Assembly (NCBI RefSeq): GCF_055900595.2
Contig: NZ_CM148325.1
DNA: 64,000 nucleotides
Reading direction: 5' to 3' (one strand)
The notes beneath the pieces are model-generated. The model searched no databases and was not told the DNA's origin. It saw nothing but the letters and a program-made list of their open reading frames with translations. This document shows positions 3,174 to 60,766 of the stretch, piece after piece (the first letter of the stretch is position 1; every line of letters starts with the position of its first letter). Position numbers and translations under genes: made by a program.

Positions 3174-3826
<653 letters not shown>

Positions 3827-3827
<1 letters not shown>

Positions 3828-4120
3828 TGAGCGAGTCACTGAGCTGGATGCAGACGGGTGACACGCTGGCGTTATCCGGAGAGCTGGATCAGGACGTTCT
3901 GCTACCGCTTTGGGAAATGCGTGAGGAGGCGGTGAAGGGGATTACCTGCATCGATCTTAGCCGTGTATCCCGCGTTGATACAGGTGGACTGGCGCTGCTG
4001 CTCCATCTTATCGATCTGGCGAAAAAGCAGGGCAACAATGTGACGCTTCAGGGGGTAAACGACAAAGTGTATACCCTGGCGAAATTGTATAATTTGCCTG
4101 CTGATGTTCTGCCTCGTTAA
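3827..4120 (+). CDS. mlaB: STAS-domain protein MlaB
   Basis: ATG overlaps mlaC stop (TAATG); 97 aa MSESLSWMQ...; ORF-track start 3731 is an in-frame extension inside mlaC. Confidence 0.9.
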
Positions 4121-11976: not shown

Positions 11977-12094
11977 AATCTCGCGCTAACAACCTGGAAT
12001 CGAGCCGTCATACTACGGCGCAACGCCCTATAAAGTAAACGATGACCCTGCGGGAACTTCAGGGTAAAATGACTATCAAAATGTGAATTGCAGC

Positions 12095-12128
12095 TGACCT
12101 GGGACTTGTACCCGGGTCGGTATTTTTT
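12095..12128 (+). promoter_or_regulatory. Terminator-like hairpin plus T-run inside the greA leader (candidate GraL-type attenuator)
   Basis: gacctggg...cccgggtc stem followed by ttttttt, about 100 bp upstream of greA start. Confidence 0.4.
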
Positions 12129-14003: not shown

Positions 14004-15938
14004 ATGGCGAAAAACCTAATACTCTGGCTGGTCATTGCCGTTGTGCTGATGTCAGTATTCCAGAGCTTTGGGCCCAGCGAGTCTAATGGCCGTAAGGTGG
14101 ATTACTCTACCTTCCTACAAGAGGTCAATAACGACCAGGTTCGTGAAGCGCGTATCAACGGACGTGAAATCAACGTTACCAAGAAAGATAGTAACCGTTA
14201 TACCACTTACATTCCGGTTCAGGATCCGAAATTACTGGATAACCTGTTGACCAAGAACGTCAAGGTTGTCGGTGAACCGCCTGAAGAACCAAGCCTGCTG
14301 GCTTCTATCTTCATCTCCTGGTTCCCGATGCTGTTGCTGATTGGTGTCTGGATCTTCTTCATGCGTCAAATGCAGGGCGGCGGTGGCAAAGGTGCCATGT
14401 CGTTCGGTAAGAGCAAAGCGCGCATGCTGACGGAAGATCAGATCAAAACGACCTTTGCTGACGTTGCGGGCTGCGACGAAGCAAAAGAAGAAGTTGCTGA
14501 ACTGGTTGAGTATCTGCGCGAGCCGAGCCGCTTCCAGAAACTCGGCGGTAAGATCCCGAAAGGCGTCCTGATGGTCGGTCCTCCGGGTACCGGTAAAACG
14601 CTGCTGGCGAAAGCGATTGCAGGCGAAGCGAAAGTTCCGTTCTTTACTATCTCCGGTTCTGACTTCGTAGAAATGTTCGTCGGTGTGGGTGCATCCCGTG
14701 TTCGTGACATGTTCGAACAGGCGAAGAAAGCGGCTCCGTGCATCATCTTTATCGATGAAATCGACGCCGTAGGCCGCCAGCGTGGCGCAGGTCTGGGCGG
14801 TGGTCACGATGAACGTGAACAGACTCTGAACCAGATGCTGGTTGAGATGGATGGCTTCGAAGGTAACGAAGGTATCATCGTTATCGCTGCGACTAACCGT
14901 CCGGACGTTCTCGACCCGGCGCTGCTGCGTCCTGGCCGTTTCGACCGTCAGGTTGTGGTTGGCTTGCCAGATGTTCGCGGTCGTGAGCAGATTCTGAAAG
15001 TTCACATGCGTCGCGTACCATTGGCACCCGATATCGACGCGGCAATCATTGCCCGTGGTACTCCAGGTTTCTCCGGTGCTGACCTGGCGAACCTGGTGAA
15101 CGAAGCGGCACTGTTCGCTGCTCGTGGCAACAAACGTGTTGTGTCGATGGTTGAGTTCGAGAAAGCGAAAGACAAAATCATGATGGGTGCGGAACGTCGC
15201 TCCATGGTGATGACGGAAGCGCAGAAAGAATCGACTGCTTACCACGAAGCAGGTCACGCGATTATCGGTCGCCTGGTGCCGGAACACGATCCGGTGCACA
15301 AAGTAACGATTATCCCGCGCGGTCGTGCGCTGGGTGTGACCTTCTTCTTGCCTGAGGGCGACGCAATCAGCGCCAGCCGTCAGAAACTGGAAAGCCAGAT
15401 TTCTACGCTGTACGGCGGTCGTCTGGCAGAAGAGATCATCTACGGGCCGGAACATGTTTCTACCGGGGCGTCCAACGATATTAAAGTTGCGACCAACCTG
15501 GCGCGTAACATGGTTACCCAGTGGGGCTTCTCTGAGAAACTCGGTCCGCTGCTGTATGCGGAAGAAGAAGGTGAAGTGTTCCTCGGTCGTAGCGTAGCGA
15601 AAGCGAAACATATGTCCGATGAAACGGCACGTATCATCGACCAGGAAGTGAAAGCACTGATCGAGCGTAACTATAATCGTGCGCGTCAGCTTCTGACCGA
15701 CAATATGGATATTCTGCATGCGATGAAAGATGCTCTCATGAAATATGAGACTATCGACGCACCGCAGATTGATGACCTGATGGCACGTCGCGATGTACGT
15801 CCGCCAGCGGGCTGGGAAGAACCAGGCGCTTCTAACAATTCTGGCGACAATGGTAGTCCAAAGGCTCCGCGTCCGGTTGATGAACCGCGTACGCCGAACC
15901 CGGGTAACACCATGTCAGAGCAGTTAGGCGACAAGTAA
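14004..15938 (+). CDS. ftsH: ATP-dependent zinc metalloprotease FtsH
   Basis: ATG at 14004 gives [15 protein letters not shown]..., 644 aa; Walker A GPPGTGKT and zinc motif HEAGH; ORF-track start 13995 is a TTG extension. Confidence 0.95.
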
Positions 15939-15970
15939 GTTCCCGCATTAGATGACTGTATTTGTACCGA

Positions 15971-16000
15971 AAACCCCGGGGCGTGCTCCGGGGTTTTTTC
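15971..16000 (+). terminator. Intrinsic terminator-like hairpin after ftsH
   Basis: aaaaccccggggcgtgctccggggtttttt. Confidence 0.6.
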
Positions 16001-16027
16001 TTATCAATTCATACCAGGGATAACATC

Positions 16028-16876
16028 ATGAAACTCTTTGCCCAGGGCACTTCACTGGACCTTAGCCATCCTCACGTAATGGGGATCCTCAACGTTACGC
16101 CTGATTCCTTTTCGGATGGCGGCACGCATAACTCGCTGATAGATGCGGTGAAACATGCGAATCTGATGATTAACGCTGGTGCGACGATCATTGACGTTGG
16201 TGGCGAGTCCACGCGCCCAGGGGCGGCGGAAGTTAGCGTTGAAGAAGAGTTGCAACGTGTTATTCCTGTGGTTGAGGCAATTGCTCAACGCTTCGAAGTC
16301 TGGATCTCGGTAGATACTTCCAAACCAGAAGTCATCCGTGAGTCAGCGAAAGTTGGTGCTCACATTATTAACGATATTCGCTCTCTTTCCGAACCTGGCG
16401 CTCTGGAAGCTGCTGCAGAAACCGGTTTGCCAGTTTGCCTGATGCATATGCAGGGAAATCCAAAAACCATGCAGGAAGCCCCGAAGTATGATGATGTCTT
16501 TGCGGAAGTGAATCGCTACTTTATTGAGCAGATAGCTCGTTGTGAGCAGGCGGGTATCGCAAAAGAGAAATTGTTGCTCGACCCCGGATTCGGTTTCGGT
16601 AAAAATCTCTCCCATAACTATTCATTACTGGCGCGCCTGGCTGAATTTCACCATTTCAACCTGCCGCTGTTGGTGGGTATGTCACGAAAATCGATGATTG
16701 GGCAATTGCTGAACGTGGGGCCGTCCGAGCGCCTGAGCGGTAGTTTGGCCTGTGCGGTCATTGCCGCAATGCAAGGTGCGCACATCATTCGTGTTCATGA
16801 CGTCAAAGAAACCGTAGAAGCGATGCGGGTGGTGGAAGCCACTCTGTCTGCAAAGGAAAACAAACGCTATGAGTAA
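16028..16876 (+). CDS. folP: Dihydropteroate synthase
   Basis: ATG at 16028 gives [32 protein letters not shown]..., 282 aa; ORF-track start 15962 runs through the ftsH terminator. Confidence 0.9.
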
Positions 16877-18206
16877 TCGTAAATATTTCGGTACCGATGG
16901 GATTCGTGGTCGTGTAGGGGATGCGCCGATCACCCCTGATTTTGTACTTAAGTTGGGTTGGGCCGCCGGTAAAGTGCTGGCGCGCCACGGCTCGCGTAAG
17001 ATCATTATTGGTAAAGACACGCGTATTTCTGGCTATATGCTGGAGTCAGCACTGGAAGCGGGTCTGGCGGCTGCGGGCCTTTCCGCACTCTTTACAGGCC
17101 CGATGCCTACACCTGCCGTGGCTTATCTGACGCGTACCTTCCGCGCAGAGGCCGGGATTGTAATTTCTGCATCGCATAACCCATTCTACGATAACGGCAT
17201 TAAATTCTTTTCTATTGACGGTACTAAGCTGCCGGATGCAGTTGAAGAAGCCATCGAAGCGGAAATGGAAAAAGAGATCAGCTGTGTTGATTCGGCAGAA
17301 CTGGGTAAAGCCAGCCGTATCGTTGATGCTGCGGGTCGCTATATCGAGTTTTGCAAAGCCACGTTCCCGAACGAACTTAGCCTCAGTGAACTGAAGATTG
17401 TGGTGGATTGCGCAAATGGCGCGACTTATCACATCGCGCCGAACGTACTGCGTGAACTGGGGGCGAACGTTATCGCTATCGGTTGTGAGCCGAACGGCGT
17501 AAACATCAATGCCGAAGTGGGGGCAACTGATGTTCGTGCGTTACAGGCGCGCGTACTGGCTGAAAAAGCAGATCTTGGTATCGCCTTTGACGGTGACGGC
17601 GACCGCGTGATTATGGTTGACCATGAAGGCAATAAAGTCGATGGCGACCAGATTATGTATATCATCGCGCGCGAAGGTCTGCGTCAGGGCCAACTGCGTG
17701 GTGGCGCGGTGGGTACATTGATGAGCAACATGGGGCTGGAACTCGCCCTGAAACAGCTAGGAATTCCGTTTGCTCGTGCGAAAGTGGGCGATCGCTACGT
17801 ACTGGAAAAAATGCAGGAGAAAGGCTGGCGTATCGGTGCAGAGAACTCTGGTCATGTGATCCTGCTGGATAAAACCACAACCGGTGACGGCATCGTTGCT
17901 GGTTTGCAGGTACTGGCGGCGATGGCGCGTAACCATATGAGCCTGCACGACCTTTGCAGTGGTATGAAAATGTTCCCGCAGATTCTGGTTAACGTGCGTT
18001 ACACCGCAGGTAGTGGCGATCCGCTGGAGCATGAATCAGTCAAAGCTGTAACCGCAGAAGTTGAAGCGGCGCTGGGTAGCCGTGGACGTGTGCTGTTGCG
18101 TAAATCCGGCACCGAACCGTTAATTCGCGTGATGGTGGAAGGCGAAGACGAAGCGCAGGTGACTGAATTTGCACACCGCATCGCCGATGCAGTAAAAGCC
18201 GTTTAA
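16869..18206 (+). CDS. glmM: Phosphoglucosamine mutase
   Basis: 445 aa ORF with active-site SASHNP motif; overlaps folP stop by 8 bp. Confidence 0.95.
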
Positions 18207-18225
18207 CGCGTTATATAACTGGCTA

Positions 18226-18252
18226 AAAAGGCGGCGATTGTCGCCTTTTTTC
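18226..18252 (+). terminator. Terminator-like hairpin after glmM
   Basis: aaaaaggcggcgattgtcgcctttttt. Confidence 0.5.
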
Positions 18253-18433
18253 TCAGCGAACACATCGGTTTTGCTGTTTTTTTCCGCAGTTGATACAATG
18301 CGATAAAATTGCCCTTGCGAAGGTCATTCGCTTTGGTTAGTATTCACACCCGCTTCAGTGGGAAAGATTAGAAACTCCCGCTTTATTGGTTGAAGCATTG
18401 GTACGCGGCAACTCCGCAAGGAACAGGTTGATT

Positions 18434-22547: not shown

Positions 22548-22669
22548 CTTTCCCTTAGAGTCCTTTTTCAAATATACTGTGAAGACTTCGGCCTTCGTAG
22601 TGGGATTTGAAAAAATCCTTCTGGAAAGTGCTCCAGACCGCAGTTGCGGTTATAGGGTTCAGTTATATA

Positions 22670-22694
22670 AAGCCCCGATTTATCGGGGTTTTTT
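22670..22694 (+). terminator. Terminator/attenuator-like hairpin between metY and rimP
   Basis: aaagccccgatt-tatcggggtttttt. Confidence 0.5.
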
Positions 22695-22753
22695 GTTATC
22701 TGACTACAGAATAACTGGGCTTTAGGCCCTTTTTTTATGTCTTGGGGGTGGGC

Positions 22754-27418: not shown

Positions 27419-27435
27419 GGTTTTTAGGGTTCTAT

Positions 27436-27510
27436 GCGGGATAAGGCGTTTACGCCGCATCCGGCATGGATTGCCTGATGCGACGCTGGCGCATCTTATC
27501 AGGCTACGTG
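27436..27510. repeat. REP (repetitive extragenic palindrome) elements between infB and rbfA
   Basis: gcgggataaggcgtttacgccgcatccggc... and ...gcctgatgcgacgctggcgcatcttatcaggc, typical REP sequence. Confidence 0.55.
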
Positions 27511-27580: not shown

Positions 27581-27982
27581 ATGGCGAAAGAATTTGGTCG
27601 CCCGCAGCGCGTAGCGCAGGAAATGCAAAAAGAGATCGCTCTCATCCTGCAACGCGAAATTAAAGATCCTCGTCTGGGCATGATGACCACCGTTTCCGGT
27701 GTCGAAATGTCTCGTGACCTGGCGTATGCAAAAGTATATGTGACGTTCCTTAACGACAAAGATGAAGATGCGGTTAAAGCGGGCATCAAAGCGTTACAAG
27801 AAGCCTCTGGTTTCATCCGCAGCCTGCTGGGGAAAGCGATGCGCCTGCGTATCGTGCCGGAACTGACCTTCTTCTACGACAACTCGCTGGTTGAAGGGAT
27901 GCGTATGTCAAACCTGGTGACCAGCGTGGTCAAACATGACGAAGAACGTCGTGTTAATCCGGACGACAGCAAGGAGGACTAA
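27581..27982 (+). CDS. rbfA: Ribosome-binding factor A
   Basis: ATG at 27581 gives [20 protein letters not shown]..., 133 aa. Confidence 0.9.
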
Positions 27983-28978: not shown

Positions 28979-29344
<366 letters not shown>

Positions 29345-29360
29345 TTCTTGCGAGTTTCAG

Positions 29361-29387
29361 AAAAGGGGCCTGAGTGGCCCCTTTTTT
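29361..29387 (+). terminator. rpsO intrinsic terminator hairpin
   Basis: aaaaggggcc-tgag-tggcccctttttt. Confidence 0.65.
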
Positions 29388-29589
29388 CAAACTGACGGCA
29401 GCAATTCACTGGAAACTAATGTATTGTTGCTATGAATGATCTTCCGTTGCAGAGGTTCGCGCGGCTAATGAGAGGCTTTACCCACATTGGGCTGGGTTAG
29501 GGTTGTCATTAGTCGCGAGGATGCGCAGAAGATCGGGTATTAACACCAGTGCCGTAAGGTGCTGTCTAAGAAAGAGAAAGGATATTACA

Positions 29590-32824: not shown

Positions 32825-32905
32825 ATGAAAATTGCTGATCAATTTCATGATGAGTTATGTAGACTGGCCGCCATTAATTTTGAGGCACACGTACTACATG
32901 GCTGA
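32825..32905 (+). CDS. yrbN: Small protein YrbN (26 aa) overlapping the deaD start
   Basis: ATG at 32825 gives [26 protein letters not shown], stop TGA at 32903-32905; recalled as the annotated small ORF upstream of deaD. Confidence 0.5.
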
Positions 32906-39479: not shown

Positions 39480-40004
39480 GTGTTGGATAAACTGCGTTCC
39501 CGTATTGTGCATTTGGGGCCATCTCTGTTGAGTGTACCGGTAAAACTGACGCCATTTGCGCTAAAACGCCAGGTTCTTGAGCAGGTCTTAAGCTGGCAAT
39601 TCCGCCAGGCGCTGGATGATGGCGAGCTGGAGTTTCTTGAAGGGCGCCGGTTAAGTATTCATGTGCGTGATATTGACCTGCAATGGTTTACCTCGGTGGT
39701 GAATGGCAAACTGGTCGTTAGCCAGAACGCGCAAGCTGATGTGAGTTTTAGTGCCGACGCCAGCGATCTGCTGATGATTGCGGCGCGTAAACAAGATCCG
39801 GACACGCTCTTCTTCCAGCGTCGGCTGGTGATTGAAGGCGATACGGAGCTGGGGCTGTATGTGAAAAACCTGATGGACGCCATTGAACTGGAGCAAATGC
39901 CGAAAGCCTTACGCATGATGCTGCTGCAACTGGCGGATTTTGTTGAGGCGGGAATGAAAACCGCGCCTGAAACCAAACAGACATCGGTAGGTGAACCATG
40001 CTAA
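39480..40004 (+). CDS. ubiT: SCP2-domain protein UbiT (YhbT)
   Basis: GTG at 39480 gives MLDKLRSRIVHLGPSLL..., 174 aa; divergent from ubiUV; start codon choice uncertain. Confidence 0.8.
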   Translation: MLDKLRSRIVHLGPSLLSVPVKLTPFALKRQVLEQVLSWQFRQALDDGELEFLEGRRLSIHVRDIDLQWFTSVVNGKLVVSQNAQADVSFSADASDLLMIAARKQDPDTLFFQRRLVIEGDTELGLYVKNLMDAIELEQMPKALRMMLLQLADFVEAGMKTAPETKQTSVGEPC

Positions 40005-40501
40005 TTCGAGTAGAAATTCCCATTGATGCGCCGGGTATTGATGCCCTGCTGCGTCGTTCATTCGAAAGTGATGCGGAAGCGAAGCTGGTTCACGATCTGC
40101 GTGAAGATGGCTTTCTGACGCTGGGGCTGGTGGCGACAGATGACGAAGGTCAGGTCATTGGCTATGTGGCATTCAGTCCGGTTGATGTGCAGGGCGAAGA
40201 CCTGCAATGGGTCGGCATGGCACCGCTGGCGGTAGATGAAAAATACCGTGGACAGGGGCTGGCACGCCAACTGGTCTATGAAGGACTCGATTCGCTTAAT
40301 GAGTTCGGCTATGCCGCAGTGGTGACGCTGGGCGATCCGGCGCTGTACAGTCGTTTCGGCTTTGAGCTGGCGGCGCATCACGATCTGCGTTGCCGCTGGC
40401 CGGGCACTGAAAGCGCCTTCCAGGTACATCGTTTAGCGGATGACGCGCTGAACGGCGTAACCGGTCTGGTTGAGTATCACGAGCACTTCAATCGCTTTTA
40501 A
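39998..40501 (+). CDS. yhbS: GNAT-family N-acetyltransferase YhbS
   Basis: 167 aa ORF overlapping ubiT stop. Confidence 0.9.

Positions 40502-41263: not shown

Positions 41264-41284
<21 letters not shown>
40841..41284 (+). CDS. yhbP: UPF0306 protein YhbP
   Basis: 147 aa ORF; 3' end overlaps yhbO 3' end by 21 bp. Confidence 0.85.
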
Positions 41285-43673: not shown

Positions 43674-43848
43674 GTCGGATGCGGCGTAAACGCCTTATCC
43701 GACCTACGGTTTGCATCGTTGTAGGCCTGATAAGACGCGGCAAGCGTCGCATCAGGCAACGGCAGTCGGATGCGGCGCAGGCGCCTTATCCGACCTACGG
43801 TTTGCATCGTTGCAGGCCTGATAAGACGCGGCAAGCGTCGCATCAGGC
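43674..43848. repeat. Tandem BIME: two near-identical 84-bp REP-pair units at 91-bp period
   Basis: Unit 1 43674-43757 and unit 2 43765-43848, each gtcggatgcggcg...gccttatccgacctacggtttgcatcgttg.aggcctgataagacgcggcaagcgtcgcatcaggc. Confidence 0.7.
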
Positions 43849-45057: not shown

Positions 45058-45453
45058 TTATGAGTGGTCATTAAAGGCATCCTTAATCCACTCAACTTCA
45101 TTCCCGGTGAAGGCTACCACATCGAACCGGCAATCCACAGTATCAAAACTCCCATTATGACGCGCGAGCCACAAGCGGGCAGTCTGTAATAATTTGTGTT
45201 GTTTGCTGCGGGTCACACTGGCTGCCGCACCACCGTAAAGGGCTGAGCGGCGGTAACGCACCTCGACAAAAACGGTGGTCCTGCCTTCACGCATTATCAG
45301 ATCGATCTCGCCGCCACGCTCGTTCACGTTAGCGGCGACAAACCGCAGTCCTTTGCTCTCCAGCCAGCGACGCGCTTGTGCTTCCCACGCATCGCCGGTC
45401 TGTTTAGTGGTTAACTGGCGGGGACTACCTGACCTTGTTGGTACTGTAGCCAT
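45058..45453 (-). CDS. yraN: UPF0102 protein YraN
   Basis: 131 aa ORF; its 5' end overlaps the 3' end of lpoA. Confidence 0.85.
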
Positions 45454-49192: not shown

Positions 49193-49984
49193 TTACAAAA
49201 TGCCGAATGCGGAACAAACAATAGAGAGCACAAAAGTCACGCCGATTAACAGCACCGGATGCGCTTTTTTCACCCGCAGGAAGTAATACATCAGCAGGGT
49301 GTAGGCCATCGGTAAAATGTTCGGGAAGACTTTATCGAAGAAATCCTGCTGCAGCGCGACGCTGTGGGTACTGTCGATGGCAAACGATGTCACCACGTTA
49401 ATATGCACATACGAAGCGATCAGCCCGCCGATTACCGTGATCCCGAGGATGGTTGCCGAACGAGCAATCATCTGCGAGTTCTCTCGCACTTTATCGATCG
49501 CCTTCACGCCGACTGAATAACCGACGTGGGTCCAGCCGACGCGCAGGAAGAAGATAAGCAGGTAAACGGCGAAAAATAGAATCGGCCCCAGCAAGTTTCC
49601 CTGGCTGGCAAATGATGAGCAAATTCCCGCCATAATCGGCAATAAGGTAAACCAGAAAATCGCATCGCCAATCCCGGCGATTGGGCCAAACAGTGCCACT
49701 TTGAGGCCTTTAATGGTGTCGCGGTTTTCTCCTTTTTCTTCCATCGAAATTAATAACCCCATCAGGAATCCGACCAGATTCGGGTGGGTATTAATAAATT
49801 CGAGATTATCTTTCATCGCCGCGCTTAGGCCCGGTTTGTCGTCCTTATAAATCTTTTTCAGGATCGGCAACATCGCCCAGGTAAAACCTCCCGCCTGCAT
49901 CCTTTCGTAGTTAAAGCTCGCTTGCAGGAGTGACGAACGAAAGCCCAGACGGGTGATATCTTTTTTACTGATTTCAGATCCCAT
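49193..49984 (-). CDS. agaD: PTS galactosamine-specific EIID component AgaD
   Basis: ATG at 49984 gives MGSEISKKDITRLGFRSSLLQASFNYERMQ..., 263 aa; ORF-track start 50131 is an extension inside agaC. Confidence 0.85.
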   Translation of the reverse strand: MGSEISKKDITRLGFRSSLLQASFNYERMQAGGFTWAMLPILKKIYKDDKPGLSAAMKDNLEFINTHPNLVGFLMGLLISMEEKGENRDTIKGLKVALFGPIAGIGDAIFWFTLLPIMAGICSSFASQGNLLGPILFFAVYLLIFFLRVGWTHVGYSVGVKAIDKVRENSQMIARSATILGITVIGGLIASYVHINVVTSFAIDSTHSVALQQDFFDKVFPNILPMAYTLLMYYFLRVKKAHPVLLIGVTFVLSIVCSAFGIL

Positions 49985-50777
49985 TGCTGTAGTCCTCTTC
50001 TTCATTTTTACTGGCAACGGGCTGCGGTTGCGCTTGCTGCCGGGATTTCGCATTGAAAAACTCATACACCGCAAAGCCTGCACCCAGTACGGCAACTGGC
50101 AACAGGTTGCTGACCTGGATGTAGCAAACAAACAAGAAACCGGCGATCAGGTAAGGGATATATTGCGCTTTGAACATCACGCGCAGCAGCAGGCCAAAAC
50201 CAACGGCAGGCAGAATGCCGCCAGCCACTTCAAAGCCGTGGGTCAGCCAGGCGGGCATCGCTTTCACCAGCGCCTGCATCGCCCCTTGCGCCAGGTAAGT
50301 ACAGAGGAAAGCAATCACCGCATACGCTGAAGCGACGATGAGCATCGTTGTCCAGTTAAGTCGGGAAAACGCTGCTGTATCCGCCTCTTTCGCACATTTA
50401 TCGGCTTTGGTCATAAATAATGAGAATGCCGAATAGAAGAACAGAATGACGTACTGCATTAACAAACTAAACGGCAGACCAAGGCCAATTGCCGTTTTGG
50501 CATCGACGCCAGTAGACCACGCAATGACGGTAGTCATCAGACCCGCCATAATTGGGTTGGGCGGCTGTACACCACCTGCGGGGGTTAATCCGGCGAAAGC
50601 CAGTTCTGTTAGGCCACCGGTAATTAAGCCAGTCTGAATATCACCGAGAATAGCACCTGTAAGGGTACAAACGATTATCGGGCGGAATAAAAATAAGGCT
50701 TCCAGCCAAAAATCAATCCCCAGAACGAAAACTAACGCCGCCAGGGATAATCCCTGAATTAGGGTTATTTCATGCAT
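49974..50777 (-). CDS. agaC: PTS galactosamine-specific EIIC component AgaC
   Basis: 267 aa mannose-family EIIC. Confidence 0.9.
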   Translation of the reverse strand: MHEITLIQGLSLAALVFVLGIDFWLEALFLFRPIIVCTLTGAILGDIQTGLITGGLTELAFAGLTPAGGVQPPNPIMAGLMTTVIAWSTGVDAKTAIGLGLPFSLLMQYVILFFYSAFSLFMTKADKCAKEADTAAFSRLNWTTMLIVASAYAVIAFLCTYLAQGAMQALVKAMPAWLTHGFEVAGGILPAVGFGLLLRVMFKAQYIPYLIAGFLFVCYIQVSNLLPVAVLGAGFAVYEFFNAKSRQQAQPQPVASKNEEEDYSNGI

Positions 50778-53487: not shown

Positions 53488-53539
53488 AACTCAATCCTTA
53501 GTCTGATGAACTTGACTTCCGGCATTGCAGGTTTCGCTT

Positions 53540-53660
53540 GCCTTTCGTTTCATTTCACTTGGTGATTCGTTTCGTTGATTAAAATCTATAGAAAAGAAAT
53601 CGAAAGTTCAATGGAGAAAAAAGAAATAAAACGAAATTTGTGATCGTTGAAAGAAAAGAC
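53540..53660 (-). promoter_or_regulatory. agaS promoter region with iterated AgaR operator-like motifs
   Basis: Repeated CTTTCGTTTCATTTC / TTCGTTTCGTT / AAAGAAATCGAAAG / AAAACGAAAT motifs just upstream of agaS. Confidence 0.4.
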
Positions 53661-53837
53661 AAGGGAAGATTAAAGGATTGCGTGATGACGTCGCTATGTG
53701 TACCGATTGCTGGAAGCGGCGTACCGTAGAGCGGATAAGACGCGCCAGCGTCGCATTCGACACCACTGCACAGATTAAAACGAAAGAAAAAGAAAGGCCT
53801 TACGGGGGAAGTGAAGGCCCAATAAAGGAGCAAACCA

Positions 53838-54971
53838 TCAAAACGAAGCTAATTGACCCTGAATCCAGATTTGTTGCACATACAGTCCGCTATTCAGCGC
53901 AACGACGCTGGCGCGTTTGCCCGGTTTAAGTGATCCCAGAACACCATCAACACCCAGCATTCGCGCCGGATGCAGCGATGCCATATGGATGGCTTCCGCA
54001 GGCGTTACGCCCGTCAACTCGACCATGTTGCGCACTGCCGCATCGACAGACAGCGTACTGCCCGCCAGCCCACCGGACGCGGTACGGACAACGCCACCGC
54101 GCATCTGCACTTCTTCACCACATAACGTATATTGACCATCCGGCATCCCGGCTGCCTGCATCGCATCAGTTATCAGCACTATTCTCTCTTTCGCACAGCA
54201 ACAACACAGCGACATCGCCGCCGGATGTACATGATGCCCATCGGCTATCAATTCCAGCCAGGCGCGCTTGTCCGTTAAACCCGCGCCAACCATTCCCGGT
54301 TCGCGGTGATGTAATCCTGTCATCCCGTTATAGCAATGCACCAGGCCGTCTGCGCCAGCATCAAATACGGCGCGGGTTTGTTGCCAGGTTGCTGCGCTAT
54401 GTCCCAGCATTACCCGCACGTTCTGCTGTTTAAGATGACGAATGGCTTGTAACGCGCCCGTTTTTTCCGGTGCCAGCGCCACCACGCGCAAGGTATGCCG
54501 TGAAACAGCAATCAATTGATCCAGCTCGGCAATTTCCAGCTCGCGAAACAGCTCCGGCGGATGTGCGCCTTTATTCTGCGGCGTGAAGTACGGTCCTTCG
54601 AGATAACTCCCCAGCACTTGCGCACCAGGTCCACCGCGCTGGCAGCGTAGAGCAATACGTTCCAGCGCCGCATGAATGGTATTAAGCGGCGCGGTTACGG
54701 TAGTCGGCAACCAACTGCCGACACCTTCCCGTGCCTTGTGCATTGCCAGCTTGTCGAGCACATCCGGCGCGTCATCCATAACATCAACGCCCGCACCACC
54801 GTGTACATGGGTATCGATATAAGCGGGGCAGAGCAGTTCCGCATCGCGTTCAGTCACGCCCACTGGAATCGGTTCGATTGCTGCAATTACACCGTCAGCA
54901 ATATGCAACTGATGATCATCAAGCCAGCCCTCCTCAGTCAGCAGTCTTCTGGCGCGCAGAACGTGTGTCAT
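53838..54971 (-). CDS. agaA: N-acetylgalactosamine-6-phosphate deacetylase AgaA (full length)
   Basis: ATG at 54971 gives MTHVLRARRLLTEEGWLDD..., about 377 aa NagA-like amidohydrolase; uninterrupted. Confidence 0.85.
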   Translation of the reverse strand: MTHVLRARRLLTEEGWLDDHQLHIADGVIAAIEPIPVGVTERDAELLCPAYIDTHVHGGAGVDVMDDAPDVLDKLAMHKAREGVGSWLPTTVTAPLNTIHAALERIALRCQRGGPGAQVLGSYLEGPYFTPQNKGAHPPELFRELEIAELDQLIAVSRHTLRVVALAPEKTGALQAIRHLKQQNVRVMLGHSAATWQQTRAVFDAGADGLVHCYNGMTGLHHREPGMVGAGLTDKRAWLELIADGHHVHPAAMSLCCCCAKERIVLITDAMQAAGMPDGQYTLCGEEVQMRGGVVRTASGGLAGSTLSVDAAVRNMVELTGVTPAEAIHMASLHPARMLGVDGVLGSLKPGKRASVVALNSGLYVQQIWIQGQLASF

Positions 54972-55402
54972 ATTCCTTCCTCGACCGGACATTCTTCATG
55001 GCAGCGGCCTAACTCGTCTACCAGACTGGTCAGCCCACGGTGTCCACACTCCAGCGCCTGCACACGGAATTCTTCACCGCTTAACCCTTCGCGCTCCAGC
55101 ACCATTTCCAGTAACAGTTGCAAATTGGTGCCGGTGATCACTTCATAGCCCGGTTTTTGCATCGCCAGCGTTGAAGCCACGCGAAACGGTGTGCCGCCCA
55201 GCAAATCTGTCAGAAAAACAATGCCGTCTTCACAATCCAGTTGGGCGATGGCTTCTTCAAGCTGCGATGTAAGCAGCGCAGTGCTTGAGGTTTCCGGAAA
55301 ATCAATGGCGATAAACTGCGACTGCTCGCCGAGGATTTGCTTCATTGCTTTTTCCATGCCGCTGGCAAATCCGCCATGCCCTGTCAAAATAATACTTAAC
55401 AT
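54968..55402 (-). CDS. agaF: PTS N-acetylgalactosamine/galactosamine EIIA component AgaF
   Basis: 144 aa mannose-family EIIA. Confidence 0.85.
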   Translation of the reverse strand: MLSIILTGHGGFASGMEKAMKQILGEQSQFIAIDFPETSSTALLTSQLEEAIAQLDCEDGIVFLTDLLGGTPFRVASTLAMQKPGYEVITGTNLQLLLEMVLEREGLSGEEFRVQALECGHRGLTSLVDELGRCHEECPVEEGI

Positions 55403-55419
55403 CTAATACCTCATTGTAT

Positions 55420-56298
55420 TTAAAGGAAATGACAGAATTTACCGACGATGCCAAGAACCACGGTAACCGCAATCAGGCGCAGCGGACTCCAGCCGCGGCG
55501 TACCAGCCAGAACATGGTCAGGGTGTAGACCAGCGGTAAGAAGGCAGGCATCAGTTTGTCGATAACGTCAGCCTGCAGCTTAACCACTGCGTCGCCCGCC
55601 GTGATTTCCAGCGTGGTGCTTAAACGAACATAGGTTGCCACCAGCGCGCCGATTACCGTCATCCCAACGATTGACGCAGCATGGCCGACTTTTTTGGTAT
55701 TCGCTTTAATGAGTGGAATCGCCGCCACGCCCATGCGGTAAGCATAATGCGCCAGACCAAAACGCAGCCCCAGGTGTACCACGTTGAACAGCACAATAAA
55801 GACGACTGCGCCAAGAATAGAGCCTTGCAATGCCAGACTGGCTCCAATCCCGCCACAAATCGGCAGTAACGTTAGCCAGAACATGGCATCGCCAATCCCG
55901 CCGAGCGGCGCACCGACGGCAATTTTGGTGCTCTGAATACTGTTAACGTCCTGCTTAGAACGCTCCATCGCAAGGATAATGCCGATAACAAACGTCACCA
56001 GAAACGGATGGGTATTGAAGAAACCCATATGTCCCTTCATGGCGCGCGCCAGGTCGCGTTTATTAGTGTGGATCTTTTTCAGAGCAGGCAGCAGACCGTA
56101 CAACCAGCCGGAAGCCTGCATACGTTCGTAGTTAAAAGACGCTTGTAACAGCATGGAACGCCAGGCGACGCGGTTGATATCTTTTTTCGTCAGCTCTGCG
56201 CCAATGCTCTGATCTTCATACACGTTTTCATTGACGCCTGTCAGCAGTGTCTCTTCATTTTCGCTGACGTTCGGCAGGGTGGTTTGATTAGATGCCAT
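55420..56298 (-). CDS. agaE: PTS N-acetylgalactosamine-specific EIID component AgaE
   Basis: ATG at 56298 gives MASNQTTLPNV..., about 292 aa; 11-bp overlap with agaW like the agaC/agaD junction. Confidence 0.85.
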   Translation of the reverse strand: MASNQTTLPNVSENEETLLTGVNENVYEDQSIGAELTKKDINRVAWRSMLLQASFNYERMQASGWLYGLLPALKKIHTNKRDLARAMKGHMGFFNTHPFLVTFVIGIILAMERSKQDVNSIQSTKIAVGAPLGGIGDAMFWLTLLPICGGIGASLALQGSILGAVVFIVLFNVVHLGLRFGLAHYAYRMGVAAIPLIKANTKKVGHAASIVGMTVIGALVATYVRLSTTLEITAGDAVVKLQADVIDKLMPAFLPLVYTLTMFWLVRRGWSPLRLIAVTVVLGIVGKFCHFL

Positions 56299-57067
56299 CT
56301 TCAAATTCCTCTTTCTGTGCCGCAGGTTGAGTCGGTTCAGGAGATTTACGCAGCAAGTCGATCAGCGCCATCGCCAGCGCGGCGGCAGCAATAGCCAGCA
56401 CCGGTAACTTGAGCCAGGCTGCGGCAACAAAGCCCAGGATGAAGTAGGGGATGTAGACGTTTTTCATCATGATTTTCAGCAGCACGGCAAAACCGATTGC
56501 TGGCATGATGCCACCCGCGACGCCGAGGCCGTCGATTAATCGTTGCGGCAGGACATCAATGATGGTTTTGGCATGTTCTGCGCCGAAGTAGATAGGCAGG
56601 AAAGCGCAGAGAAAATAGAACGTGCCGAGTGCCAACAGTGCCAGATAGTTCACGCGTTCAATGCCGCGTGTATCGGCGTTCTCCGCCATCCGGTCGCAGC
56701 GGGACATTACGCCAGACATCACCGAGAACAGGAAGGTAATCCCCATCTGTACTGCGACAGCGAAAGGTACGGCGACACCGACCGCGACATCCGGTTTCAC
56801 GCCAGTAGTAATGGCAAACGCCGTGCCGACGATAGTTCCGATAATCACGTTAGGCGGCTGTGCGCCCGCCAGTGGTGCCAGCCCCATCCACACCAGTTCC
56901 AGCGTACCGCCGGTTAAAATACCGGTATGCAGATCGCCAAGCACCAACCCAACTAACGGGCCGAGGACCACCGGGCGGTGCATATGGGTCAAGCCGTTAA
57001 ACATATCCAGGCCAGCGATAAAGGCGATAATGCCCAACGCAAATGCCTGCAACAGACTGATTTCCAT
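56288..57067 (-). CDS. agaW: PTS N-acetylgalactosamine-specific EIIC component AgaW (full length)
   Basis: 259 aa mannose-family EIIC, paralogous to AgaC; uninterrupted. Confidence 0.85.
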   Translation of the reverse strand: MEISLLQAFALGIIAFIAGLDMFNGLTHMHRPVVLGPLVGLVLGDLHTGILTGGTLELVWMGLAPLAGAQPPNVIIGTIVGTAFAITTGVKPDVAVGVAVPFAVAVQMGITFLFSVMSGVMSRCDRMAENADTRGIERVNYLALLALGTFYFLCAFLPIYFGAEHAKTIIDVLPQRLIDGLGVAGGIMPAIGFAVLLKIMMKNVYIPYFILGFVAAAWLKLPVLAIAAAALAMALIDLLRKSPEPTQPAAQKEEFEDGI

Positions 57068-57077
57068 AATGAATCCC

Positions 57078-57551
57078 TCAAAGTAATTTAAAGAGGTCCA
57101 CAGCAGGTTCTGTCGGAACGCCCTGAACGAAGCATTCCACCCCAGCGGCTTTCAGGTCGTTAAATGCCGCGATATCGCTCGCATCCACAGAAACCGTTTT
57201 GGCAATTTGCTGCTTGCCATTGGCATAGTGCATGTTGCCAACGTTAATGCGACTCACCGGGACCCCACCTTTAACCAGCATCAGGAAATCGGCAGGTGTT
57301 TTACAAACCAGCAGAATTTTCTGCCGATCGGCGGCGCGGTGGATGTTGTCGATCACTTTTTGCAGCGTCCAGAAACGTACGGCGATCCCTTCAGCCAGTA
57401 CCATTTCCATCAGGTTTTGTTGTACCGGATCTTCGGCAACCTCATCATTGGCTACCAGCACCAGATTTGCCCCCGCAAATCCGACCCACTGAACGCCGAC
57501 CTGACCGTGAATCAAGCGTTCATCAATCCGGCTTAAAACAATATTTGGCAT
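57078..57551 (-). CDS. agaV: PTS N-acetylgalactosamine-specific EIIB component AgaV
   Basis: ATG at 57551 gives MPNIVLSRIDERLIHGQVG..., 157 aa. Confidence 0.85.
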   Translation of the reverse strand: MPNIVLSRIDERLIHGQVGVQWVGFAGANLVLVANDEVAEDPVQQNLMEMVLAEGIAVRFWTLQKVIDNIHRAADRQKILLVCKTPADFLMLVKGGVPVSRINVGNMHYANGKQQIAKTVSVDASDIAAFNDLKAAGVECFVQGVPTEPAVDLFKLL

Positions 57552-57573
57552 AGCGTGTTCCTCTTTGTTTTGC

Positions 57574-58854
57574 TTATTGGCCTTCACAGGCTGTGTGGTA
57601 CTGCGCCAGGATGTCCTGAATATGGTTGATAATGAGTTCCCGTGGCGTTGGCTGCAGCTCGCCGGAGCGAACTTTCACGTATTGCAGCGGCAGGTACTGA
57701 CTGATGAGCGGCAGCGGAATTGGTGCATCCGCCAGGTTACGAACCAGATGGGCGAAAGCGTCATCAATCTGGCTGTCCGGCCAGTAATAGCGCACGCGAT
57801 CCGAGTAGCTATAACCACGCGCCAGACGACGCGCGTTGCCATCACCGTGGTAGTGGCTTTGCCAGTATTCCGGGCGGTCGAGCATCACGTTTTCCAGCAC
57901 CTGACGCAGACCGGAACAGGCTTTTGCTGGCACCAGTTCTTCTTCAATCGCCGCCAGAGAGAACAGAGCTTCACGCAGGGCGAAGGTGAGCGCCGGACCA
58001 ACTTTCAGAATGGCAAAGTGGTCAATCACCAGCTGGCGCAGCGATTGCGGCGTTTGGTAATCGGTAGAGTGCGCTTCGAAAATCAGCGTTTCGTAGTTTT
58101 CGACCATCTGGCTTAAGGCGGTCGCTTTAGCTGGCTGATAATCAATAACGTTGGTGTGATCGAATTCGACGCCGGGTTGTACCACCAGAGCAATGATGCG
58201 TGGCCAGATGGCATTCAGACCTTGCTTTTCAAAGGCGTGACGATGGGCTTCCAGCGTGGCGCGGGCGGCATCCGGCGTAGTGACCGCCAGCTCGCTTAAG
58301 GTTTCATGCGCGCCGCCAGGTACCGGCACTTCGGTACCAATGACATACACCAGATCGGCTTCGCCAAAGTGTTCACGGCAGGTTTCTTCCGCGACTTTAG
58401 CCAGTCGGGCGGCGCGTTCAGCCACGATGTCATCGGTTAAGGGAACCGGATCGTCCTGACAGGACATGCTGCAATCAAGGTGAATTTTTTTGAATCCTGC
58501 CGCCACGTAGCTTTTAATCAAATCATCGGCATTTGCCATCGCCTGAGCTGCAGGCAGGTTTTGCCAGCGGTTTGGCCCCAGATGATCGCCACCCAGAATC
58601 AACGCGTCTTGTGGGAAATTCAATGAGTCGGCGAGCTGACAAACAAAGCCGCGAAAATCGGCGGGTGTCATTCCGGTATAACCACCGAACTGGTCCACCT
58701 GATTGGATGTCGCTTCAATCAGTAACGGTGTTTGGTTTACACTGGCGTAGCGGATTGCAGCTTCCAGCACCAGCGGGTGTGCGGAACAAACGGCATAAAT
58801 CCCATTTGTTTTGCCCTCTTTGTGCTGCCTCACCATTTCTGTCAGATGTTTCAC
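57574..58854 (-). CDS. kbaZ: Tagatose-bisphosphate aldolase non-catalytic subunit KbaZ (AgaZ)
   Basis: 426 aa from GTG at 58854 ([22 protein letters not shown]...); start uncertain, ORF-track start is 58920. Confidence 0.8.
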
Positions 58855-58929
58855 TTTCCTCTCCAGTTCAGATTGCTGCGATATTAATCTTTCGTTTTGT
58901 TTCAGTTGATACTGCGTCATGGTGAGATA

Positions 58930-59966: not shown

Positions 59967-60431
59967 TCAATGGTTTTCTTCTGTCTCTTGGGTGAGGCTT
60001 TCCCAGTCGGCAGGAGGATGTCCTCTTTTTAACATTTTACTGAATACGGTATAGGCATCTGTTTTTTTACCGTAGGTGCGCAGCGTGTTTTCATCGTTCA
60101 TCCATCCCAGAATGATGACTTTCTCTTTTTCACTGTAACGAAAGAAGAGACGATAGCGACCAGCACCAAATTTTACCCGTGACCAGTCTTTATTTTTCCC
60201 AGAGCCTAACGACTTGCCATGACGGAATGCCGGTGATGATGGATTGACCGTGATATGCTCCTCAATCACTTTATGGACCACCGCCAATAACTTTGTGGCA
60301 GCTTTTCTCTGATAATTTTCAGGATCTTTTCCCTTTAATGCCTCGACTTCGGCAACTAAAGCATCGTAGGTTTCCTGAAAACAGGGATGAGCATATAGCG
60401 CCCAACCATTAACCCTTTGTGGAAAATCCAT
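59967..60431 (-). CDS. yhaV: Toxin YhaV (ribosome-dependent mRNA interferase)
   Basis: 154 aa ORF MDFPQRVNGWALYAHPCFQETYDALVAEVE...; start overlaps prlF stop. Confidence 0.85.
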   Translation of the reverse strand: MDFPQRVNGWALYAHPCFQETYDALVAEVEALKGKDPENYQRKAATKLLAVVHKVIEEHITVNPSSPAFRHGKSLGSGKNKDWSRVKFGAGRYRLFFRYSEKEKVIILGWMNDENTLRTYGKKTDAYTVFSKMLKRGHPPADWESLTQETEENH

Positions 60432-60766
60432 TATTCGTCGTCGCCAATCTCATCGTCAATGTTGACGTCCATGCCAGCGACAAGTTTCTTTCCTTGTTGA
60501 ATGTCGAATGGACGAGTTTTTTGCGGGTTGTTCTGGATATCTGCATCCAGAAAACGCAAAAATGCATTCATAGTATGATCCTCCTGTTCATCTCCCAGTC
60601 GGCACATAAATACTTGCCCACCAGGCAGAATTTCGTAATGAATGCTGTCCAGGCCTGGCTTCAGTTTTAAGGCCTCACGCACTGGCGCGGGGATAGTTGT
60701 TTGTCCGCGTATCGTGACCTTTGATTCAGTGGTCAGTACAGCGTTAGAGCGAGCATTAGCGGGCAT
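60431..60766 (-). CDS. prlF: Antitoxin PrlF (SohA), AbrB/SpoVT-type
   Basis: 111 aa ORF with acidic C-terminus; immediately upstream of yhaV. Confidence 0.85.
   Translation of the reverse strand: MPANARSNAVLTTESKVTIRGQTTIPAPVREALKLKPGLDSIHYEILPGGQVFMCRLGDEQEDHTMNAFLRFLDADIQNNPQKTRPFDIQQGKKLVAGMDVNIDDEIGDDE

Follow-up and report, generated by a model that had tools for sequence, protein, structure and literature searches.

The 8-nt overlap of folP with glmM raises the question of whether the short gene overlaps in this region of Escherichia coli DNA tie the translation of the downstream gene to that of the upstream one. The window (the whole stretch of 64,000 nt analysed) contains yrbG, mlaFEDCB, ibaG, and murA, later ftsH, folP, glmM, and secG, and then a complete aga/kba cluster, agaR, yhaV, prlF, garD, and garP. 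We take mlaFEDCB, ftsH-folP-glmM, the aga operons, and prlF-yhaV to be established operons. The window differs from E. coli NZ_CM128600.1 (579084-643083) at 17 of 64,000 positions, so the RefSeq (PGAP) coordinates of the latter were carried over one to one; all annotated CDSs were rechecked and are intact ORFs. A 2.4-kb probe around the folP/glmM overlap was matched in 5425 of 5426 complete E. coli genomes.

Six overlaps had been listed in an earlier note, and all were present exactly as described, with lengths of 8, 1, 11, 11, 4, and 1 nt that match the RefSeq/PGAP coordinates. The folP gene (16028-16876, plus strand) and glmM (16869-18206, plus strand), both PGAP-annotated and intact, share the 8 nt ATGAGTAA at 16869-16876, in which the glmM ATG occupies 16869-16871 and the folP stop codon TAA 16874-16876. 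A Shine-Dalgarno (SD)-like AAGGA of glmM lies within folP at 16853-16857 (plus strand), at a long spacing of 11 nt 5' of the ATG. The mlaC/mlaB pair meets in TAATG (3825-3829, plus strand) with a 1-nt overlap at 3827, and prlF/yhaV likewise in TAATG (60429-60433, minus strand) with a 1-nt overlap at 60431. For agaF/agaA (agaA is annotated as nagA), the "few nt" noted earlier are the 4 nt of ATGA at 54968-54971 (minus strand), served by the strong SD GAGGAAGGA. The two 11-nt overlaps, agaC/agaD (ATGGGATCTGA, 49974-49984, minus strand) and agaW/agaE (ATGGCATCTAA, 56288-56298, minus strand), have the same length and share 9 of their 11 bases; in both, the IIC protein ends in Gly-Ile-stop, and the IID proteins start with Met-Gly-Ser (AgaD) and Met-Ala-Ser (AgaE). 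Each is preceded by an SD AGAGGA inside the IIC gene, at 49993-49998 within agaC and 56307-56312 within agaW (both minus strand), at the same offset of -14 to -9 relative to the ATG.

The list was correct but incomplete, as it left out four further co-directional overlaps. These are the 1-nt TAATG overlap of rbfA/truB (at 27982, plus strand) with a very strong SD AAGGAGG (-11.4 kcal/mol), the 8-nt overlap of yrbN/deaD (32898-32905, plus strand), in which yrbN is a 26-codon upstream ORF ending in the deaD start region, the 7-nt overlap of ubiT/yhbS (39998-40004, plus strand; SD -7.0 kcal/mol), and the 43-nt overlap of lpoA/yraN (45411-45453, minus strand; SD -4.4 kcal/mol). Convergent overlaps are present in the window as well (yhbS/yhbQ, 14 nt; yhbP/yhbO, 21 nt). 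Altogether, 10 of the 45 co-directional adjacent pairs of the window overlap according to the PGAP annotation, and 9 of the 45 (20%) have a stop-start distance of -8 to +6 nt. The genome-wide share of E. coli pairs in this range is 24% (PMC10666635); the overlap frequency in the window is thus normal for E. coli and not raised. The coordinates are already in RefSeq, and overlaps and their link to coupling are textbook knowledge.

SD strength was scored as the best duplex of the 16S rRNA 3' end with positions -20 to -4 of each start. The values were -5.6 kcal/mol for glmM, -5.8 for agaD, -6.0 for agaE, -7.4 for agaA, -3.3 for mlaB, and -2.7 for yhaV (the weakest of the set), compared with medians of -5.8 kcal/mol for the 66 annotated starts and -2.4 kcal/mol for 958 internal ATGs. 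The ten starts downstream of an overlap had a mean of -5.9 kcal/mol versus -5.4 kcal/mol at non-overlapping annotated starts (p = 0.90), and their SDs were far stronger than those of the 958 internal ATGs (average -2.3 kcal/mol, p = 1.6e-5). An SD near the end of the upstream gene, a feature that contributes to termination-reinitiation without being obligatory for it, is thus present for glmM, agaD, agaE, and agaA (-5.6 to -7.4 kcal/mol) and weak for mlaB and yhaV, the values of which lie within the internal-ATG range. Accessibility was estimated by thermodynamic prediction as the cost of opening positions -18 to +10, with a median of 7.8 kcal/mol for all starts and an average of 12.8 kcal/mol for random coding positions as benchmarks. 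The predicted costs were 7.1 kcal/mol for glmM, 8.1 for agaD, 8.4 for agaE, 7.8 for agaA, 14.6 for mlaB, 10.2 for yhaV, 17.2 for truB, and 15.7 for deaD. An inhibitory structure over the ribosome-binding site was thus predicted for mlaB, with yhaV as a borderline case, and not for glmM, agaD, agaE, or agaA; a search for Rfam RNA families gave no hit at any junction.

The two measures divide the pairs. Because of their weak SDs and costly-to-open start regions, mlaB and yhaV are probably the best candidates for obligatory coupling, whereas glmM, agaD, agaE, and agaA, with normal SDs in mRNA predicted to be open, can probably initiate alone too, which would make coupling there facultative or additive. 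From the coordinates, start codons, and SD strengths, the predicted accessibility, and the cross-species conservation described below, we infer translational coupling, and its strength, at these pairs. We consider these junctions to be ordinary short operon overlaps and coupling by termination-reinitiation to be their likeliest consequence, with a probability of roughly 75%. The proposal that the overlaps are consistent with coupling is reasonable and has partial support: the geometry, the start codons, and most of the SDs fit it, but two of the six pairs have poor SDs, and four pairs look capable of independent initiation.

In the proposed mechanism, the upstream gene contains, in its last stretch, both the start codon of the next gene and the ribosome-binding site that serves it, and a ribosome ending the upstream protein would halt 1-11 nt from the next start. 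Once released there, the ribosome, as a 30S or 70S particle, would remain on the mRNA, held by SD/anti-SD pairing where an SD is present, move back by 1-11 nt, and begin translating the downstream gene; how far the second gene depends on the first probably varies between pairs. At prlF/yhaV, dependence of yhaV on prlF translation would keep the toxin below the antitoxin, and at the IIC/IID junctions an ancestral overlap may couple the production of two membrane proteins that work together in one complex. Reinitiation becomes steeply less efficient as the distance grows (PMC10666635). Within the stop-start window of about -8 to +10 nt used by Huber 2023 (PMC10666635) lie the two 1-nt overlaps and those of 4 and 8 nt, with the two 11-nt overlaps just outside; the latter share their phase with the 8-nt class. 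The overlap classes enriched in E. coli and across prokaryotes are 4, 1, and 8 nt, and longer ones are rare (PMC10666635, PMC12548453). Overlaps of 8 nt are reported to reinitiate less efficiently, and subunits of heteromeric complexes are 4.5-fold enriched among closely spaced E. coli pairs (PMC10666635).

Coupling does not follow from an overlap as such. Among native E. coli 4-nt pairs, four of five were coupled and bioBF was uncoupled (PMC6728339). PrlF-YhaV is encoded on a single transcript with an antitoxin:toxin mRNA ratio of 1.11, and the synthesis rate of PrlF exceeds that of YhaV (PMC5535158), which fits the weak SD of yhaV. Because bioBF overlaps without coupling and because PrlF and YhaV are made unequally, an overlap is not proof of coupling and should not be taken as proof of equal output. 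A literature search returned no published coupling experiment on any of the ten pairs. The experimentally tested E. coli pairs are all 4-nt overlaps, a set outside which the 8- and 11-nt class falls. The folP and glmM products are unrelated enzymes without a stoichiometric need, a point that counts against coupling of this pair.

As an alternative mechanism, RNA structure might lock the downstream ribosome-binding site until upstream ribosomes melt it, after which fresh ribosomes initiate. We regard this as possible, if doubtful, for the set of pairs. Established examples of it are rpmI-rplT and MS2 coat-lysis (PMC12548453), and the predicted opening costs of mlaB, truB, and deaD reach or exceed that of random coding sequence. 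The start regions of glmM, agaD, agaE, and agaA, however, are predicted to be as open as typical starts, and 75 IIC/IID junctions gave an empty alifold consensus and folding-energy z-scores near 0, so no conserved RNA structure was detected at them. Unfolding and ribosome reinitiation or scanning, as reviewed, are not mutually exclusive (PMC12548453).

Rather improbable in our view is that the overlaps are neutral by-products of genome compaction or stop-codon drift, with each downstream gene initiating independently from its own SD. The typical SDs and open start regions of glmM, agaD, agaE, and agaA would allow this, and the uncoupled bioBF overlap provides a precedent. In addition, shortening to 4 or 1 nt is closed to overlaps in the 8/11/14-nt phase, 8 nt being the minimum of that phase (PMC10666635), and they may for that reason simply persist. 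The folP/glmM junction speaks to both sides. Metagenome contigs probed with the N-terminal motif of GlmM yielded 77 distinct GlmM loci, of which 46 had folP directly upstream; the two genes overlapped by 4 nt in 11 of these 46 loci, by 1 nt in nine, by 8 nt in two, and by 11 nt in one, and were separated by 0-10 nt in seven and by 20-210 nt in 16. The ATGAGTAA overlap was retained in an enterobacterial folP/glmM locus. Thus, the geometry of this junction is evolutionarily labile, close apposition is common, and the 8-nt form is lineage-specific. The free variation among the 46 loci is what neutrality predicts, but half of the loci overlap and a further seven lie within 10 nt. Against neutrality also stand mlaB and yhaV, which lack a good SD of their own, and the Aga-type IIC/IID junctions, at which synonymous sites are frozen across phyla.

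Both IIC/IID pairs of the window, named agaC/D and agaW/E by PGAP, matched Pfam EII-Sor PF03609 (E = 1e-68 and 2e-74) and EIID-AGA PF03613 (E = 1e-92 and 1e-91). For the survey, one genome per species was scanned with an AgaD and AgaE alignment, giving 80 loci with 49-98% identity to AgaD from Enterobacteriaceae, Clostridia, Bacilli, Erysipelotrichia, Negativicutes, Fusobacteria, Actinobacteria, and Tenericutes. Because the patterns used for the search sit within IID and distant from the junction, the junction itself is free of ascertainment bias. Start calls were settled by inspection and a motif-anchored recount. Apparent overlaps of 98-101 nt in three Enterobacteriaceae loci, produced by picking the start with the strongest SD, turned out on inspection to be standard junctions, and two gap cases and three loci seemingly devoid of an upstream ORF under a long-ORF rule were false, all of them carrying the standard junction.

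In 76 of the 78 loci with upstream sequence, the IIC gene ended in an in-frame GGN-ATH-TRR; the remaining two had the motif plus an indel. The best-supported IID start gave an overlap of 11 nt in 52, 14 nt in 20, and 17-23 nt in four of the 76 loci, with ATG (60) or GTG (16) as start codon and an SD in every case (median -10.6 kcal/mol). Both window junctions show the signature of GGN-ATC-TRA at the end of IIC and an IID start that precedes the stop codon by 8 or 11 nt. Five loci nearer to AgaE than to AgaD had 11 nt as well. Independent PGAP annotation places the same overlap in Klebsiella agaW/agaE (95% identical to AgaE) and in Lacticaseibacillus agaC/agaD, and the Klebsiella agaW/E and L. 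paracasei agaC/D plasmid copies carry the junction signature. Among 70 distinct junctions, positions -6, -5, -3, -2, and 0 relative to the stop codon were invariant and position -1 was C in 69, with about 0.1-0.7 bits of information on both flanks of the motif. The IIC tail residues differ (EEE, EED, GGD, GGE, REV, KES), yet GGAGG or GAGGA always stands 5-9 nt before the start; the variable amino acids next to an unchanging motif indicate that the SD is kept at the RNA level. The IID tail, from the start to the conserved KKDI core, differs by >20 codons while the overlap stays fixed.

The two window junctions agree in length and in most of their bases; the positions at which they fall in the IID proteins are not equivalent, because AgaE has 31 additional N-terminal residues compared with AgaD, and the Pfam EIID-AGA domain starts at residue 5 in AgaD and at residue 36 in AgaE. 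This extension was compared with that of Klebsiella. There were no indels, 14 of the 22 differences were at third codon positions, and the codon changes comprised 12 synonymous and 6 non-synonymous ones. The sole alternative in-frame agaE start in the extension, a GTG at codon 26, lies 3' of residues conserved through synonymous changes. The AgaE N-terminal extension is thus real coding sequence. Together with the 76 of 78 Aga-type loci, it strongly backs the view that the paired 11-nt overlaps support the agaE start. The two E. coli 11-nt overlaps are inherited from an ancient arrangement, which in turn supports this start. For the Aga family, this provides a rule by which IID starts are called 8 or 11 nt ahead of the stop codon of IIC, whatever the length of the N-terminal tail.

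The nucleotides at this junction are more constrained than the IIC protein demands. The terminal IIC Ile codon was ATC in 68 of 69 loci, whereas the codon usage of the individual loci predicts 20.3, and GGT was never used as the terminal Gly codon versus 23.4 expected, at locus GC contents of 27-61%. One locus has ATT, which gives Phe in IID. In the IID frame the junction bases specify Ser and exclude Val; the distance of this Ser is fixed neither from the IID N-terminus (position 3 or 4) nor from the conserved core (4 to about 36 residues). Selection on the IIC protein alone cannot produce this pattern. Three explanations are candidates for this pattern: both protein ends may be under purifying selection simultaneously, the sequence may be an RNA-level optimum for termination-reinitiation, or a phase trap may operate, which would account for the persistence of the overlap but not for the invariant nucleotides. 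We dismissed pairing between a GAUC of the motif and the 16S rRNA 3' end, since the middle base N varies (A 33, C 27, G 10) and GAUC is therefore not conserved.

A bolder reading, which we put forward as an unlikely one, sees more than two conserved protein ends in the near-invariant junction that Aga-type operons share with related mannose-family PTS operons. The junction would be a selected cis-acting element that fixes the geometry and kinetics of termination-reinitiation, with the SD maintained by RNA-level selection in a hypervariable IIC tail, and it would serve one-for-one synthesis and co-translational assembly of IIC and IID. In terms of this element, the last IIC codon NTC and the stop codon TRA read as Ser TCT and RAN in the IID frame. 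We regard the invariant Aga-type junction as a modest, unexplained curiosity. It is a compact, dual-coded overlap with frozen synonymous sites that is conserved across phyla, and it offers a natural case for studying what besides distance sets reinitiation efficiency in the 8/11/14-nt phase. Literature searches found no published description of IIC/IID coupling or of the aga junction; their coverage was incomplete, and novelty is not implied.

Mis-annotation of any of the downstream starts, which would turn overlaps into artefacts of start choice, is highly improbable. PGAP is itself a predictor rather than an experiment, and longer ORFs are possible for agaD (TTG 50131), agaE (TTG 56304), agaA (ATG 54992), and mlaB (GTG 3731), and also for folP. 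In each of these five cases, however, the annotated start beat the alternative in anti-SD pairing; for agaA, the ATG at 54992 had an SD of only -2.4 kcal/mol versus -7.4 kcal/mol at the annotated start. The downstream start codon was ATG in all listed pairs, and glmM (16869) and yhaV already use the first start codon of their ORFs. Structurally solved GlmM homologues start two residues ahead of the KYFGTDG motif, a spacing that leaves the ATG at 16869 as the sole glmM start. Six cryo-EM entries contain an MlaB chain identical to the 97-residue protein and beginning at Met1. The family-wide start position fixes agaD and agaE, and the N-terminal tail of AgaE evolves like coding sequence. A search for a solved structure of YhaV found none, and glmM, mlaB, yhaV, truB, yhbS, and deaD were all absent from the TRAINSPOTTER N-terminomics supplements. 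The starts agreed with the independent PGAP annotation and were supported by the SD comparison, solved structures, and cross-species data; those chosen in the earlier note, agaE included, can thus be trusted.

At the prfB frameshift site, the SD lies 3 nt from the P-site codon. That NTC-TRA is a programmed +1 frameshift site yielding some IIC-IID fusion is barely conceivable, and we rejected it: the IID frame is indeed +1 relative to IIC, the stop codon has an upstream SD-like element, and synonymous sites are frozen, but IID expression is fully explained by a start codon that has a strong SD at good spacing in all 76 loci, a P-site AUC cannot re-pair with the +1 codon UCU, some 13 nt instead of 3 nt separate the SD from the P-site codon, and positions -9 to -7 are not conserved.

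With termination-reinitiation as the preferred reading, the pairs of the window can be set beside known systems. They resemble hyfHI, astDB, ydbH/ynbE, and menDH (Huber et al. 2019, 2023) in being co-directional operon genes with stop and start codons a few nt apart, in having an SD inside the upstream gene the role of which depends on the gene, and in the enrichment for complex subunits, represented here by IIC/IID and PrlF/YhaV. They differ in that the pairs of Huber et al. are all 4-nt overlaps, a length shared here by agaF/agaA alone, the others being 1, 8, or 11 nt, and in that folP/glmM and agaF/agaA encode no complex partners. The predicted closed starts of mlaB, truB, and deaD are reminiscent of rpmI-rplT, MS2 coat-lysis, and atpHA, which rely on RNA unfolding, whereas most pairs here are open and no defined inhibitory hairpin was identified in them. 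Like relBE, mazEF, and yefM-yoeB, the prlF/yhaV pair places the antitoxin gene ahead of the toxin gene, overlaps by 1 nt, is carried on one transcript, and yields the toxin more slowly than the antitoxin; it is a listed member of the type II toxin-antitoxin class (PMC5535158) with nothing distinctive.

With prfB (RF2), the IIC/IID junction shares a stop codon, the +1 frame relation, and an upstream SD-like element; it lacks a slippery P-site codon, has the wrong SD spacing, and possesses a genuine start codon, and is therefore not a member of that class. With manY/manZ and other ManYZ-type pairs, the Aga-type pairs share the Pfam combination of EII-Sor and EIID-AGA, the gene order, and products that work together. 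The K-12 manY/manZ genes, however, are separated by a 12-nt gap instead of overlapping, and four other ManYZ-type pairs have gaps of 10-18 nt with the SD in the spacer and an acidic IIC end, in contrast to the 11/14-nt overlap and Gly-Ile-stop of the Aga type. Other mannose-PTS subfamilies have overlaps of 1, 8, 11, 20, or 23 nt or gaps of 2 or 13 nt, and several of them show a looser core, in which IIC ends in a hydrophobic NTC codon (Ile, Phe, Leu) plus TRA and IID reads TCT-RAN (Ser-x). The GGN-ATC-TRA overlap junction is thus specific to the Aga-type subfamily and absent from ManYZ-type pairs.

The six short coding overlaps listed in the earlier note, among them folP/glmM, agaC/agaD, agaW/agaE, and agaF/agaA, were all confirmed, but the list itself was incomplete because four further co-directional pairs overlap in the window. 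The rbfA and truB genes share 1 nt (27982), with a very strong Shine-Dalgarno interaction (−11.4 kcal/mol for the duplex with the 16S 3′ end) located within closed mRNA, i.e. at a high predicted opening cost of the start region. The 26-codon upstream ORF yrbN overlaps deaD by 8 nt (32898-32905) and ends within the deaD start region, and overlaps of 7 nt and 43 nt were found for ubiT/yhbS (39998-40004) and lpoA/yraN (45411-45453), respectively. Two additional overlaps, yhbS/yhbQ (14 nt, 40488-40501) and yhbP/yhbO (21 nt, 41264-41284), are convergent, and translational coupling is impossible for such tail-to-tail pairs.

Rfam matches scoring above the gathering score comprised the leaders of greA (12007-12128), rimP (22636-22736), and S15 (29017-29131), all on the plus strand, the sRNA SraG, antisense between rpsO and pnp (29360-29531, minus strand), and two copies of the REP-like element naRNA4, one after infB (27435-27505, plus strand) and one between yraQ and dolP (43724-43795, minus strand). 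Across 5425 E. coli genomes, identity to the segment covering ftsH, folP, and glmM (15900-18300) reached at least 99% in just 15, compared with 95-99% in 4552 and 90-95% in 858. Therefore, either the lineage from which the window derives is uncommon or the segment represents a divergent allele. Identical matches included human stool isolates (one Kenyan) and one dog isolate.

Among the Aga-type IIC/IID pairs from other species, the only natural variant found of the otherwise invariant junction (IIC end GGN-ATC-TRA, IID start 8 or 11 nt upstream of the IIC stop) was GGAATTTAA from Aneurinibacillus terranovensis (locus L026, 2461-2469). Here, the Ile codon is ATT instead of ATC, which converts the IID residue from Ser to Phe. 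Since the overlap is still present, the Ser of IID is not absolutely required. Standard junctions followed by an IID frameshift just downstream were observed in Citrobacter amalonaticus (L013, 98% identical to AgaD; about 2484-2520, with the shift in a run of A's) and in Paenibacillus sp. D2_2 (L025, about 2471-2530); these frameshifts represent either assembly errors or recent pseudogenes.

In comparison with AgaD, AgaE (55420-56298) carries 31 extra N-terminal residues, within the first 35 codons and outside the Pfam EIID-AGA domain; this extension is acidic and Asn/Thr-rich. Non-synonymous changes accounted for 6 of 18 changed codons in the extension versus 8 of 120 in the domain; the extension is thus under weaker constraint than the domain, yet clearly coding.

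The aga cluster (53838-58854) is complete, with full-length kbaZ, agaV, agaW, agaE, agaF, and agaA. For kbaZ (57574-58920), the PGAP start is a GTG at 58854, and the same frame also contains an ATG, 22 codons further upstream (58920). The cluster is tightly packed except for a 350-nt noncoding gap between agaA (annotated as nagA) and agaS (53488-53837). This gap gave no Rfam family match and is presumably a promoter or regulatory region internal to the cluster. In E. coli K-12, a deletion has truncated agaW and agaA and removed agaE and agaF; the agaW/agaE and agaF/agaA junctions would accordingly be absent from K-12.
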